In this document: piece after piece, positions 59,113-64,000 of the stretch
Position numbering within the stretch: the stretch's first letter is position 1
Layout: each line of letters starts with the position of its first letter
DNA from: Parcubacteria group bacterium RIFCSPLOWO2_01_FULL_48_18
Lineage (GTDB): Bacteria > Patescibacteriota > Minisyncoccia > UBA6257 > WO2-01-48-18
NCBI GenBank assembly: GCA_001824435.1
Contig: MHXH01000017.1
Coordinates: forward strand, 335 to 64,334
Direction: 5' to 3'
DNA: 64,000 nucleotides
Program-made: the position numbers and the translations under genes
Notes under the pieces: model-generated
What the model saw: only the letters and a program-made list of their open reading frames with translations
Database searches by the model: none
What the model was told of the DNA's origin: nothing

Positions 59113-59811
59113 ATATATTTCTTTCTATAGCCACACAAAGTGCAGAAATTCGAACAACAAAGTATTTCCATATATTTCTATAATATTTCCACATATTTCT
59201 GAAATACATTGAAATATGCTTCGCGAAACAAATAGAAATATCCTGTTTTGTATTTGCGCTTCCGTTGCTCCGCAACGGTTGGCTGACGCATTCTCCGACT
59301 GAAACGTCAGGGCTGCCCTTCAATAAATTCAGGGCTAAGTTTCTACGGGATTATTTATTCCGATTCCCCTAATTCACGCTCTCGATCATCCAGTCGAAGC
59401 AATTCATCGTCTATTTCATCTTTCCTTTCCCGGATATCTCTTAACCTTTGGTTATCTCCATCTATGCCAAGGTTTAGTTCAAAATCTTTCATCCGTTGTA
59501 ATTCATTCTCCAGCTCCTCCTTTTTTTACGAATCTCCAACGACCTTTCAGCAATTGTTTGTTTCTCTATTTTTTTGATTTTTCCATGTTAGTAAAACAAA
59601 TAACCTCCCTCGGTATTATATCCTATCAAACCCAGGTTATAAGTTCAACCTCGGGGTTGCTCTGATGAGCAATAGGGCTTCACCGAAGTGTCAATTGTCA
59701 ATTATTACCTCCGATGGGTGTGGGGATTAATTTTTTTGGATTATTAGTACTCCTCGGCTGAAATCCTTACGGATCTTACACCTGGAGCCTATCAGCCAGC
59801 GCTCCGCACTG

Positions 59812-59945
59812 GAATTTCTAATTCCTAATTTCTAATGACTAATCAAATCCAGATTTCGAAATCCCAATAACCAAAATATTAGAAATTGGCCATTTGGGCA
59901 TTGAAACATTGATTAGGAATTAGGTCAATTAGAAATTAGACATTT
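59812..59945. repeat. AT-rich heptamer-array element (aatttct/attagaa units) inserted in the 3'-terminal variable helix of 23S
   Basis: Shares attaggtcaattagaaatt with the copy at 63303-63418. rRNA homology resumes on both sides. Confidence 0.6.
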
Positions 59946-60521
59946 CCGGTGCGAAGCACTGGTTTTTACGTGGTAGTCTTCCACGATCCTCAAACGATAC
60001 CTTATCTTAGGGGAGGCTTCGCGCTTAGATGCTTTCAGCGCTTATCCCGTCCGAACATAGCTACCCGGCGTTCCACCTGGTGGCAGAGCCGGCAGACCAG
60101 AGGTTCGTTCATCCCGGTCCTCTCGTCACATAATCACATATCACTATGTGTGCAGACTATATCTTTACCCGTCCAGTCTTCGCCGGTTGGCGAATGGCAG
60201 GTTTGGGTATCGGCGTATTATAGATGTTCAAAAACATCTATCTCCCGGGCACATAAACTTATGTGCTTCGGTCAGTCGTTACGGGGTCAACCCTTCGATA
60301 AACTCAGGGTAACTTCCCACGGTATTAACTCTAGTTCGTTTATCCAAAAGTTTTGGACCGCAAAACTTTTACAAACTAAAGCCTTCACCGTTATTAGCCG
60401 AATTGTCATCTCGCATTACTGCGAGAAGTAGCAATTTTCGTTTACTAGGGACGACTCCCTTCAAGTATCAACGCCTGCGGCAGATAGAGACCGACCTGTC
60501 TCACGACGGTCTGAACCCAGC

Positions 60522-60793
60522 TCCATTTATTACCTCTTGTTACCAAGAGAATAGACTATATCACTATCCCATTATGGATATGGGATATCAACGTATTAGC
60601 AAGGATATTTCACCTTACTCCCTTCGATATTAATATCGAAGAAGTCGTTACGGGGATATAGTGGAAATTTATACCGCATCGCTTTTTTCCACTAATCTTC
60701 CCTCGGTATTATCCTAAAATCGGGTTCGAGATTCTAGGGCTCCACCGATATAAGTTGATTCACATTCCTCGATTACTCGAGGAAGACGCGAAC
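60522..60793 (-). other. ~270-nt ORF-less intervening sequence in 23S near E. coli position ~2575 (degenerate group I intron or IVS)
   Basis: Exon sequence aacccagctc | ... | acgtaccctttta is contiguous in E. coli (GGUACGCGAGCUGGGUU). Insert has several hairpins and ends in G. A tccctcggtattat segment recurs at 59605-59625 outside the gene. Confidence 0.4.
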
Positions 60794-60872
60794 TTTCACG
60801 TACCCTTTTAAATGGCGAACAGCCATACGCTTCCCACCTTCTCCAGCGGGGCGCTAGGGTGAGCCGACATCG

Positions 60873-61713
60873 TACATTGTTCCGTTATTACTAACAGTGT
60901 GGACTATGTCTTCATCCAATTATTTTTACTTTCAAGTAATGGCGCTGACGTATTAGTCAAATCTTTAAAAATTTGACTCTTCCGAATAAATCGGAAAGTC
61001 TCTACGGGGTTATAACTCAATTTTGTACTTCATTGATGGAATAACTGCATCAGCCAAAAGTTCTCTAAGCCTGGATAAAGATGATTTTTTAAAACGTAAT
61101 CTAAAATAGTTTTTGTCTCTATTTAGGCTAGTTTCTAAATTCATCTTTCTTAAAACTGCGATCAACCTTTTCTGATCACTGACATCGAACTGCTGAGAGT
61201 TCAGATACACATCAGAAGATCTACATCTGCTCCCATCGTCCATATACCAAACCGCTAGACTGACCACATCTAAATTGAGTTCATCCGGAATGATTTTTTT
61301 ACCATTCCGATAAAACATTCTATAAAGTTTAGATAGGCCTTCAAGCTGCCTGGTGTAGAAACGATAGGCAATTCTGTTTCCATTTCCCTTTCTTATTTTA
61401 GGAGCTGAGGCTGAAACATCTTTCAATAACCGATATTTCCAATCAACATATTCTTTTTGATTGTAAGAATGATTGATTTCTAGCAATGCGTTCTTGCTCC
61501 TCGGTAATATACGCAAGTAACCATCTCCCAAAATTGTTCCAATGATCAATGATTTTTGGAATTGAGTTAAACTTCCCACGGCATTGTCCATACGATAATC
61601 GTATCATATGGAGTCCGCCGTTATAAGTCAGATTTTTATTCTTCGAGTACCGAACACATCGTTTCAGTACCGAAAGGTATGACATTGCTGTCATAGCACC
61701 CCGATTTAAGTTA
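60873..61713 (-). mobile_element. Group I intron in 23S near E. coli position ~2500 (peptidyl-transferase loop), carrying a LAGLIDADG homing endonuclease gene
   Basis: Exons ...ggctcggcacct | intron | cgatgtcggctc... match GGCACCU|CGAUGUCGGCUC. Exact splice points are uncertain by 1-3 nt. Confidence 0.65.
61010..61591 (-). CDS. LAGLIDADG homing endonuclease (intron-encoded)
   Basis: Two LAGLIDADG motifs: LIIGTILGDGYL and LAVWYMDDGS. Confidence 0.9.
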   Translation of the reverse strand: MDNAVGSLTQFQKSLIIGTILGDGYLRILPRSKNALLEINHSYNQKEYVDWKYRLLKDVSASAPKIRKGNGNRIAYRFYTRQLEGLSKLYRMFYRNGKKIIPDELNLDVVSLAVWYMDDGSRCRSSDVYLNSQQFDVSDQKRLIAVLRKMNLETSLNRDKNYFRLRFKKSSLSRLRELLADAVIPSMKYKIEL

Positions 61714-61940
61714 AGGTGCCGAGCCTGGCCGTCGATAGGAACTCTCGGGCCAGACTAGCCTGTTATCCCTAGAGTAACTTTTATCCGGTGTCTCCGGCCT
61801 TCCTATGAAGAGCCGTCGGGTCACTAAGTTCTGCTTTCGCACCAGCGCGACTTGTAGGTCTTGCTGTTAAGCCGGCTTTTGCCTTTACGCGTCCAGCTCG
61901 ATTTCCATCCGAGCTAAGCCGACCTTAATAAACTCCTCCG

Positions 61941-62573
61941 TTACTTTTTAGGCAATGTGTTCCCTAATTTGTACTTCAGTGACGGTATGACGTACGAACC
62001 AATAAGTTCTGCGAATTTTTTGGCCGAATCGCTATAAATATAAATTCGCCATCTGTCGTATTGCTTATGTAGTCCAATCTCAACGTCAAACTTTTTCTGA
62101 AGCACGTCCTTTATTAACTCAAGATCTTTCTTGCCATATCCGAGTGCATGAATAATGTAGGTTTTATGCTTTTCGGATTTGTAAGATCCATCATCCATAA
62201 ACCATATCGCGAGTGCCAATGGATCGAGCAACTTCGAAATCAATTTCGGAATTCGTTTCTTCCCGCCCTCATAAAACTGCTGGGCGTAAAAACGAAACGC
62301 CCCAAGAGAATATGTAGAAAACCAGTAGCTGTCTTGTGCTCTCTTTCGCATTTTAACTTGCGGAGTTGTACGAACAAGATTCTTAAATTCCTCATACAAC
62401 CAATTTACATATTCTTTTTGTTTCAAGGAATGTTCTACTTTAAGACGGTATGTTCGACTGCGATTGCTTGTTTCCAAATGACCATCGCCTAAAAGCAATC
62501 CAACAAGAATAGATCTCTGTTTTTTATTGAGTTTCAATTTCTTTTTGAAACTTTCAATCTCGTTTGATCTCAT
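61941..62573 (-). CDS. LAGLIDADG homing endonuclease (intron-encoded); ORF runs ~13 nt into the 3' exon
   Basis: ILVGLLLGDGHL and LAIWFMDDGS. The last codons and the stop lie in exon sequence cctaaaaagtaa. Confidence 0.9.
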   Translation of the reverse strand: MRSNEIESFKKKLKLNKKQRSILVGLLLGDGHLETSNRSRTYRLKVEHSLKQKEYVNWLYEEFKNLVRTTPQVKMRKRAQDSYWFSTYSLGAFRFYAQQFYEGGKKRIPKLISKLLDPLALAIWFMDDGSYKSEKHKTYIIHALGYGKKDLELIKDVLQKKFDVEIGLHKQYDRWRIYIYSDSAKKFAELIGSYVIPSLKYKLGNTLPKK

Positions 62574-62888
62574 TTCATTAGGTTCGCCGCGCGTATCGCA
62601 CGGCCTGCATATCGCTATGCAGTTCGGACCATATCATACAGCTACCGAAATAGCCGTTCTGGCTTGTGGTCTCTGAGGTGTTCCGGGCACAGAACATGCG
62701 CCACGGTTCCCTGCTGATTGTCCGCCGCTCCGATTTTAATCGGAAACCGCTCCAAGATTTTCACCTTCTCGACTAGAAGGTACTTGAAGACACCACGGAT
62801 GTTCCAGCATATACACCAGATTTTCACCGCCGCTTGGCGGTGTCCCCCTGTAGTTCCACGGAGGTGGAACTACGTTTAAGGAAAACGC
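61954..62888 (-). mobile_element. Group I intron in 23S near E. coli position ~2260 (P-loop side of domain V) with 3'-located homing endonuclease ORF
   Basis: Exons ggggcgttttcct | intron | cctaaaaagtaacggaggag match GGGGCGGUCUCCU|CCUAAAGAGUAACGGAGGAG. 5' exon ends in U and the intron ends in G. About 315 nt of ribozyme-like sequence precedes the ORF. Confidence 0.7.
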
Positions 62889-63302
62889 CCCATTTAAACT
62901 GCCCACCAGGCACTGTCCAAACTGGGTTTATGGAAAACCAATTCCCAATTCGTTAGAGCTTACAGTTTTAAAGACGGGTGTTTCATTGGCGGCTCCAGTC
63001 CGCCCGAAAGCAGGCCTTCAAAGCCTCCCCGCTACGCTACGCATTAAAACCATAAGACCAATACCAAGCTACAGTAAAGCTTCTAGGGTCTTTTCGTCTT
63101 GCCGCAGGTACCCCGCGTCTTCACGGGGATCGCATTTTCACCGAGCTCCTCGTTGAGACAGTTGCCCAGTCGTTACGCCTTTCGTGCGCTCCGGAACTTA
63201 CCCGGAAAGGAATTGCGCTACCTTAGAACGATTATAGTTATCGCTGACATTGACGAGGGCTTACAACAGTGAGCCGTACACACCTCACTAAAGTTCGGTG
63301 CT

Positions 63303-63418
63303 CAAATTTCTAAATCCTAACTTCTAATTTCTAAATAAATCCCAGTAACCGAATTCCGAAATTGGGTATTGGAAATTTATTAGAAATTAGGTCAATTAGA
63401 AATTGGTCATTCAAGTAT
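63303..63418. repeat. AT-rich heptamer-array element inserted in 23S helix 68 region
   Basis: The insert splits helix strands cactaaggcgag / ctttagtgagg. Homologous to 59812-59945. Confidence 0.6.
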
Positions 63419-64000
63419 CTCGCCTTAGTGAGATGCATACGACCCCCATCGTTTAACCTTCTCGCATCGGTCAGGCGTCACCCCCTATACATCCTCTTAC
63501 GAGTTAGCAGGGAGCTGTGTTTTTGATAAACAGTCGCCAGGCAAACTTTCGCTGCGTCCCTCGCACCTTGCGGTGCTCGGGAAGGCCTTATCGCTAACTT
63601 ACGGCCGCTTTTTTGCCGAGTTCCTTAACGAGGACTCACTCGTTCTCCTTGGGCTACTCGCCCCGCCCACCAGTGTCGGATTGCGGTACGGAACCAATAC
63701 TATTAACTCTAGAAGTTTTTCTTGGATCGCTCTTCAGCCGGATTGCCCTGGTAAAAACCAAAACTTTCGTCTGCTTTCGGAATTTGCCATAAAAGACAGT
63801 TGAACGGATTTGCCTGTCCAACATTCCTTCAAGCAAACAGCGTCAAACCATTAAGACGCCCGGCCTTATTTCAACCGTCGCTCCATCGAAATAGTATCGG
63901 TGGGACGGAATATTAACCGTCTGTCCATCACCTTCGGCTTTCGCCATCGGCTTAGGACCGCCTCACCCGTGGTTGATTGCCATTGCCACGGAAACCTTGG

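Follow-up and report, generated by a model that had tools for sequence, protein, structure and literature searches.

A Parcubacteria 23S rRNA gene interrupted by group I introns, LAGLIDADG endonuclease genes and AT-rich heptamer-repeat hairpins

Which elements interrupt the 23S ribosomal RNA (rRNA) gene of a Parcubacteria bacterium, and what becomes of them when the rRNA is made? The question is raised by contig MHXH01000017.1 of Parcubacteria group bacterium RIFCSPLOWO2_01_FULL_48_18, of which we analysed a stretch of 64,000 nucleotides (nt; contig positions 335 to 64,334, hereafter the window) that ends inside a 23S gene. With a probability of about 0.82, we read the locus as a single 23S-5S operon colonised by four group I introns and two hairpin insertions. 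Directly established are the identity of the host, the sites of insertion, the cores of the introns with their covariation, the integrity of the endonuclease open reading frames (ORFs) and the recurrence of the insertions in other genomes of the Candidate Phyla Radiation (CPR).

Rfam finds in the window a bacterial-type 23S gene on the minus strand (LSU_rRNA_bacteria, the large-subunit (LSU) model, 621.9 bits). The rRNA strand was aligned pairwise to rrlH of E. coli MG1655, from which the numbering used here (Ec) is taken, with Infernal as a second mapping. Collinearity with rrlH breaks at six places across the part of the gene in the window. The initial annotation had described a heavily interrupted 23S gene, which both mappings bear out, and had counted five breaks; all five exist as described, and the one that escaped the count is the intron at position 2656. 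It had also ended the gene at 59740, but Infernal aligns the 3' domain to the end of the model and places the end at 59723.

At least 10 contigs, assembled from several samples, show the same arrangement with 99.6-100% identity; because these independently assembled contigs agree, it is not a product of chance or an accident of assembly. One of them (ENA ERZ4903072, 86.6 kb, here L003) is 99.99% identical to the window and includes the whole 23S gene (L003 5846-12851), which measures ~7.0 kb vs 2.9 kb in E. coli; the window covers L003 from 8574 onward. The complete gene has further non-intron insertions near Ec140-175, 230, 273, helix 25 (H25; other rRNA helices are abbreviated likewise), 651, ~1105 and H45. 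Together, the non-intron insertions of the complete gene total ~1.7 kb, including a hairpin at the H42/H44 junction in the GTPase centre. No 16S gene was found within 5.8 kb upstream of the 23S gene in L003.

At gathering thresholds Rfam reports only the LSU and 5S genes, and the introns appear only with E-value thresholds. The group I model (Intron_gpI, RF00028) then finds a core in each of four insertions, introns 1 to 4, with 45.7, 22, 36.7 and 37.4 bits, respectively (E = 3e-9 to 0.04). Because these scores lie below the gathering score, the intron structures were examined directly, by reading the paired segments (P1 to P10) in the sequence. All four introns are preceded by a U able to form a U.G wobble with the internal guide in P1. 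Introns 2-4 share GNRA-capped P2 and P9 and a GACU/AGUC P7, and they are IA-like because P7.1 and P7.2 lie between P7 and P3'. The insertions near 2260 and 2500 had been annotated as group I introns with LAGLIDADG ORFs and are so. The one near 2575 does lack an ORF, as had been noted, but was not recognised as an intron, and it is a complete one.

Intron 1 lies in the 5' strand of H81, adjoining the P loop (E = 3.4e-9, measured on the identical sequence L003 9698-9969). It has a P1 of UUUCCU/GGGGGA with U.G at the splice site, an extended P5, no P7.1/P7.2, and G as its last nucleotide. Across the family of introns at this site (L2262), the nucleotide at -1 is U in 73 of 78, and a G precedes the exon sequence CC[UAC]AAA in the 25 junctions printed. 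The match to intron 2 is on its 3' half, and both of its junctions are fixed by P1 (GCACCU/GGGUGC) together with P10 (CGAU/AUCG). Intron 3 covers the full model (E = 8.8e-7) and has P1 (ACGU/GCGU), P10 (GAGCU/AGUUC), P7.1/P7.2 and a terminal (omega) G. Its single homologue, in the locus L033, has compensatory changes in P3 and P5, and at its splice site C.A replaces U.G, in agreement with the L033 exon. Intron 4 (E = 5.6e-7) has a P1 of UAGU(AA)/(UU)GCUA and ends in G.

Covariation was measured for intron 4 with nine ORF-less homologues at the same site, using a structure specified from the window sequence. In the nine sequences 93% of cells are paired, vs 34-49% for slid controls; 21 pairs have changed on both sides, and none of 500 shuffles was as good. 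The covariation falls in P2, P3, P8 and P9. The core of intron 4 is 89% identical to that of the L2656 intron of the locus L020, whose P6 carries a different, I-CreI-like ORF. The ORF-less introns 3 and 4 may be derivatives of mobile introns, or relatives that never had an ORF.

When the introns are taken out, the junctions 2262/2263, 2500/2501, 2575/2576 and 2656/2657 have exactly the sequence of E. coli and of uninterrupted CPR genes, which are continuous across three of them (46 genes at 2500, 60 at 2575 and 34 at 2656). The exons are intact at every universally conserved motif of the peptidyl-transferase centre (PTC) and the sarcin-ricin loop (SRL). We infer that the four introns would be co-transcribed as part of the pre-rRNA and would excise themselves through the usual pair of transesterifications, and that rejoining of the exons would restore the P-loop/H81 region, the peptidyl-transferase ring and the SRL, all universally conserved.

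The ORFs of introns 1 and 2 encode the LAGLIDADG proteins HE1 and HE2 (PF03161, E = 1.8e-46 and 1.6e-39, respectively). HE1 has a full-length match to I-SceI (1r7m, E = 6.5e-19) and the motifs LLLGDGHL and WFMDDGS, with D30 and D127/D128 invariant in 26 homologues. HE2 matches the PDB entry 6x1j (E = 7e-16) and I-SceI (E = 3e-11) and has the motifs ILGDGYL and WYMDDGS; its start overlaps P5'/P4' of intron 2. Both proteins can be aligned over their whole length with I-SceI or 6x1j. A reading of HE1 and HE2 as single-motif homodimers is ruled out by the full-length I-SceI alignments, and both are two-motif proteins. By their sequences, they are predicted to be monomeric I-SceI-type enzymes, and their ORFs are intact. 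The HE1 frame crosses the 3' splice site by 12 nt: its last three codons and its stop lie in the exon (61941-61952), and the UAA within the conserved GUAACGGAGG of that exon serves as the stop. In ~77 homologous L2262 introns the LAGLIDADG coding sequence likewise extends to the same exon junction, and HE1 has more than 1860 homologues. HE1 and HE2 would cut intron-less alleles and so spread their introns by homing. I-ShaI, a related CPR enzyme, cuts its own insertion site (PMC11270868).

The two AT-rich insertions are of another kind. As had been proposed, they are related repeat elements: their interiors are 70% alike over 132 nt, and period-7 (heptamer) arrays are confirmed by Tandem Repeats Finder. 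One is in H68, the helix named in the initial annotation (Infernal, a 161-nt insert in the H68 loop), and the other lies at the H100/H101 junction and not in H98, which is absent from this gene. Both fold as nearly continuous hairpins of ~70 base pairs (-55.5 kcal/mol, z = -6.5 for the H68 insert; -72.5 kcal/mol, z = -8.9 for the H100/H101 insert), and the host helix continues into the element. Infernal places the 3' hairpin in the H100 loop, which is probably an artefact; the local H100 hairpin is intact. Each has a GC-richer base below its AT-rich interior: the H68 hairpin has the basal module CAUCUCACUAAGGCGAGAU...CUUUAGUGAGGUG (family 1) and the H100/H101 hairpin the basal module GUGCUUCGCAC...GUGCGGAGCGC (family 2), its base being also given as GUGCUUCGCAC...GUGCGGAGC.

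Members of both families are found at other sites and in other genomes. The hairpin at the H42/H44 junction of the same gene (L003 7886-8041) is a second family-1 copy, 99.4% identical to the first. The family-1 module is also present in H68 of the relative L010, twice in a Brennerbacteria operon (L030, in H68 and in the 3' trailer) and in 23S domain I of a Zambryskibacteria genome (L073), where the interior starts with nearly the same sequence as in the Brennerbacteria H68 copy. The family-2 base recurs in the 23S leader of the same operon (L003), and five other CPR loci have inserts in H68 or H98 with GCUUCGC/GCGGAGC bases. Taken together, the basal modules CAUCUCAC...GUGAGGUG and GCUUCGC...GCGGAGC occupy at least five different sites of the rRNA operon across several CPR lineages; their interiors evolve fast and are genome-specific. 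The region of the H68 tip is enlarged in ~16 of ~63 CPR loci. No target-site duplications were seen at the hairpin borders, no Rfam family matches the hairpins, and a scan of viral contigs for the family-1 module gave no matches.

Similar repeats lie outside the rRNA genes. Intergenic hairpins and tandem arrays with 7- or 8-nt repeats were observed in the window at 35480-35620, 25770-25850, 8046-8165, 1715-1785 and 43900-44000. They include GAATTTA/AGATTCT arms and 12 copies of TCGAGATA, and they match the interiors of the rRNA inserts in style, which is therefore genome-wide. The L2575 intron of L033 (1907-2292) has an AT-rich heptamer-repeat hairpin within P8; such hairpins therefore invade intron loops too.

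Table 1. Coordinates of the rRNA genes, introns, exons, endonuclease genes and hairpin insertions in the window
Feature	Position in window	Strand	Size and site	Evidence or remark
5S rRNA	58578..58696	(-)	downstream of 23S, same operon	RF00001, 58.6 bits
Putative degenerate group I remnant	59100..59709	(-)	approximate limits	core motifs
23S rRNA gene, 3' part	59723..64000	(-)	~Ec1305 to 3' end	runs off window at 64000
Exon Ec2657 to 3' end	59723..60126	(-)	with family-2 hairpin; H98 absent	rrlH alignment, Infernal
Family-2 hairpin	59796..59962	(-)	H100/H101 junction	173-176-nt insert at Ec2832/2833
Intron 4 (IA-like, no ORF)	60127..60443	(-)	317 nt, after U2656	inside sarcin-ricin loop
Exon Ec2576-2656	60444..60523	(-)		rrlH alignment
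Intron 3 (IA-like, no ORF)	60524..60797	(-)	274 nt, after 2575 (U here)	Intron_gpI
Exon Ec2501-2575	60798..60872	(-)		rrlH alignment
Intron 2 (IA-like)	60873..61713	(-)	841 nt, after U2500	peptidyl-transferase ring
HE2, I-SceI-like LAGLIDADG	61010..61591	(-)	193 amino acids, P6 extension of intron 2	PF03161
Exon Ec2263-2500	61714..61952	(-)		rrlH alignment
HE1, I-SceI-like LAGLIDADG	61941..62573	(-)	210 amino acids, intron 1	PF03161
Intron 1	61953..62878	(-)	926 nt, after U2262	core ~62605-62876; ORF fills 3' part
Family-1 hairpin	63281..63436	(-)	156 nt, H68 terminal loop replaced, ~Ec1870	rrlH alignment, Infernal

Some observations weigh against our reading of the locus as intron- and hairpin-colonised. 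All four RF00028 scores fall below the family gathering score of 50 bits, and no convincing P10 was found for introns 1 and 4. The hairpins of the window lie at H68 and H100/H101, with the upstream copy near H42/H44, while the classical sites of intervening sequences (IVSs) excised by RNase III are H25 and H45; in the complete gene those two sites are occupied by other inserts. Finally, intron 2 ends in ...AAUGUA, so that its omega nucleotide is A and the canonical terminal G is absent.

The terminal A is not removed by placing the boundary elsewhere. The 3' splice site of intron 2 is set by P1, P10 and the invariant exon sequence that runs from GGCACCU across the junction into CGAUGUCGG, and no boundary shift yields a canonical G without corrupting the rRNA. 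Omega-G is present in introns 1, 3 and 4. The L2500 family, which comprises 21 introns from CPR loci, has both kinds of end: 8 of the 21 end in A (with the tails UGUA, AGUA, CAUA, UACA and AUAU-A) and 13 in G. The GACU/AGUC P7 is kept in all 21, A-ending and G-ending alike. A literature search for group I introns with a terminal A yielded nothing usable. The only precedent known to us is Cbu.L1917 of Coxiella, reportedly a self-splicing intron without omega-G; one intron of the Coxiella 23S gene is said, in the title of the paper on it, to lack the canonical omega-G. An L2500 subfamily (8 of 21) that really splices with a terminal A would be a smaller and more probable novelty than a new class of mobile hairpin elements.

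As to the fate of the hairpins, our analysis leans slightly towards elements that behave like classical IVSs, for which RNase III-excised elements are a precedent (PMC4990558): a double-strand-specific RNase such as RNase III would cut them from the precursor, and the ends would not be religated. Excision is favoured because one copy sits in the GTPase centre, where a near-identical 170-nt arm at H42/H44 would probably be disruptive if retained. The long near-perfect duplexes are moreover ideal RNase III substrates, the interiors change quickly from genome to genome, and CPR rRNA insertions are removed from transcripts in the published view (the result of Brown et al. as given in PMC11270868). 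We consider it unlikely that the hairpins, and the rest of the ~1.7 kb of non-intron sequence inserted in the complete gene, are retained in mature ribosomes as bacterial expansion segments that lengthen H68 and the H100/H101 region. Three points nevertheless speak for retention: the inserts form regular stems that prolong or flank native helices, similar inserts at the H68 tip are seen in about one in four of the CPR 23S genes sampled, and the basal modules, being conserved across lineages, could mark a protein-binding or structural element. More doubtful still is the proposal that the hairpins are undescribed modular mobile rRNA elements, which in the boldest version of the proposal are retained in the mature ribosome. 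If that version were true, a hopping hairpin cassette would, by inserting itself, give CPR bacteria eukaryote-like expansion segments.

Two further explanations question the locus as a whole. An assembly chimera or a decaying rRNA pseudogene could be suspected from the contigs L004, L006 and L011, which start at 63399-63421, inside the H68 repeat, from the mosaic contig L010, and from the degenerate intron remnant in the spacer. We regard this as highly improbable: the contigs from different samples agree and L003 spans the whole gene, the PTC and SRL motifs of the exons are conserved, both endonuclease ORFs are intact, the introns keep P1, P7 and the core motifs, and CPR genomes usually have one rRNA copy (PMC11270868). 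An organellar (chloroplast or mitochondrial) or cyanobacterial origin might be suggested by the heptamer repeats and by the presence of several LAGLIDADG-encoding group I introns in one LSU gene, both classical features there, by endonucleases most like the mitochondrial I-SceI, and by the earlier non-CPR record of multi-intron bacterial 23S genes, which is limited to cyanobacteria and Coxiella (PMC1995217). This origin has practically no probability, as the gene content of the window refutes it. The protein encoded by rpoB (1088 amino acids) is 100% identical to OHB22464.1 ('Parcubacteria group bacterium RIFCSPLOWO2_01_FUL...'), from a metagenome-assembled genome, and its next-best matches (70-78% identity) are all Patescibacteria/CPR. 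In addition, rpoC is unsplit (1202 amino acids), the neighbours are ordinary bacterial housekeeping genes, the bacterial LSU model fits, the GC content of the window is ~49%, and no tRNA genes were found in its 64 kb. The rpoB and rpoC genes and their housekeeping neighbours therefore rule out an organelle or a cyanobacterium, and the host is a Parcubacteria (CPR/Patescibacteria) bacterium. The AT-rich heptamer repeats do recall the cyanobacterial short tandemly repeated repetitive (STRR) sequences.

How unusual are the insertion sites? Counts of sites were drawn from 80 fetched CPR loci. An HE1-type gene follows position 2262 in ~77 of the 80, and at least 567 GTDB species genomes encode an HE1 relative (those listed are nearly all Patescibacteria), so the suspicion that the ~2260 site is unusual was misplaced. 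L2500 introns occur in ~20 of the 80 loci, and intron 4 has ~20 homologues at its site among them. The insertions thus lie at sites that recur across CPR lineages, 2262, 2500 and 2656 being common. Many of the 80 loci also hold introns at 1917, 1931, 1951, 2449, 2504, 2584, 2593 and 2603. For ~2575 the suspicion was partly right: among 64 CPR genes that cover the site, one other organism (L033) has the intron. When metagenomes were scanned with the L2575-junction pattern GGTACGNGAAANTTCNCG, almost all of the matches listed were due to chance, and the one true match among them is L033's own Hainich organism. The rarity of the L2575 intron is therefore suggestive only. A literature search for L2262, L2263, L2575 and L2656 as named sites found nothing usable.

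The locus closely resembles what has been published on CPR rRNA genes (Brown et al. 2015, Nature 523:208; Tsurumaki et al. 2024, J Bacteriol, PMC11270868), which in the same lineage describes many insertions per 23S gene. According to the survey, 82% of CPR 23S genes carry insertions, up to 16 per gene, and the group I introns cluster around the PTC in the 3' region, as here; LAGLIDADG endonucleases, ORF-bearing and ORF-less versions at the same sites, and short uncharacterised non-intron insertions are further points in common (PMC11270868). Position 2657 is named there among 14 recurrent CPR insertion sites, as is consistent with intron 4 (PMC11270868). The text of the survey names none of 2262, 2500 and 2575, with three sites given in a figure only, and it holds no description of a terminal A in L2500 introns or of hairpin families with conserved bases and heptamer interiors (PMC11270868).

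Outside the CPR, the closest parallels differ in their sites and enzymes. The 23S gene of Coxiella, a proteobacterium, likewise has both a stem-loop IVS of the RNase III type and several group I introns, and one of these introns encodes a LAGLIDADG endonuclease, but it has two introns, at 1917 and 1951, vs four here, and its IVS is ORF-bearing and lies in H45 (PMC4990558). In Synechococcus sp. several group I introns with LAGLIDADG genes occupy the 23S gene, and their patchy distribution suggests horizontal transfer; the sites are L1917, L1931 and L2593, the enzymes are single-motif homodimers instead of two-motif proteins, and there are no hairpin insertions (PMC1995217). Introns that bear a homing endonuclease gene within non-CPR bacterial 23S genes were limited to 1917, 1931, 1951 and 2593 in a 2007 compilation (PMC1995217). 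The omega intron of the yeast mitochondrial LSU gene (L2449), which encodes I-SceI, is, like the introns of HE1 and HE2, a group I intron in LSU domain V. I-SceI aligns with HE1 and HE2 over its full length and shares both catalytic motifs, but it is distantly similar to them (phmmer E = 1e-11 to 1e-19), and the DNA targets of HE1 and HE2 differ from its own because the insertion sites differ. The classical RNase III IVSs of Salmonella, Leptospira, Alphaproteobacteria and Coxiella are also AT-rich stem-loop extensions of helices that are thought to have spread horizontally, and their sites, H25 and H45, carry inserts in the complete L003 gene as well. Unlike them, the window hairpins lie at H68 and H100/H101 and have heptamer interiors and basal modules common to several sites; the classical elements are excised by RNase III, while those of the window are known from their sequence and predicted folds.

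Overall, the locus is a further case of the documented intron-rich CPR rRNA genes and changes little in that picture. It is a compact, fully mapped case in which 5 kb contain four introns, of which two have an endonuclease gene, hairpins of two families and the remnant of an intron. Small new observations are the L2500 subfamily that ends in A, the apparent rarity of introns at 2575 and the modular build of the hairpin families. These raise the questions of splicing with a terminal adenosine, of 2575 as a newly colonised homing site, and of how hairpin cassettes move and are processed. In practical terms, insertions at 2262, 2500, 2575 and 2656 break rRNA gene predictors (Rfam gives a truncated LSU match only), as well as 23S primers and probes for these organisms.

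The spacer between the 23S and 5S genes contains a further element. The 23S gene ends in a 20-base-pair processing stem formed with its 5' leader, and directly downstream we find P4, P5, P6, J6/7, a P7 changed to AACU, P7.1 and P7.2, without P1/P2. Two core motifs have exactly four occurrences each in the window, in introns 2, 3 and 4 and in this element: AAURCCGWGGGARG (chance expectation 0.00) and CCCGUARNRACU (chance expectation 0.05). Both stand in the correct order within the element. A search of the remnant against Rfam gave no match even at E <= 10. We read it, from these motifs, as a putative decayed group I intron; a live intron was rejected on the grounds that P1/P2 are absent, the G-binding pair is changed and there is almost no likeness to other CPR introns. 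An ORF of 99 amino acids (58813-59112, minus strand) overlaps its 3' part. As it has no Pfam match, and no homologue was found beyond this organism, it is unlikely to be a genuine gene.

Some minor observations concern the operon and related records. An inverted repeat (UCCCGCACUAAUUUU / AAAUUUAGUGCGGGA, window 58553-58723) encloses the 5S gene, and a similar pair surrounds a GC-rich stretch of ~190 nt in the 23S leader (L003 5283-5500); these pairs may be processing stems. The minus strand carries most of the long ORFs in the window, and of thirty-two 2-kb segments all but two have a negative GC skew (about -0.04 to -0.22). The contig L010 (ENA ERZ4903055 k141_2657337) is a mosaic with respect to window positions 61677-64000. 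Upstream of the H68 insert the identity is 77%, and L010 has a different, shorter AT-rich interior there; from this insert through the exon, intron 1, HE1 and the next exon the identity is 99.6%. The mosaic is explained either by chimeric assembly or by a recent transfer of the intron in which the exons were co-converted. The 2.9-kb record NZ_AP027616.1 (L001) bears the label of an E. coli plasmid; it consists only of a 23S gene without E. coli landmarks and is apparently a contaminant from another organism.

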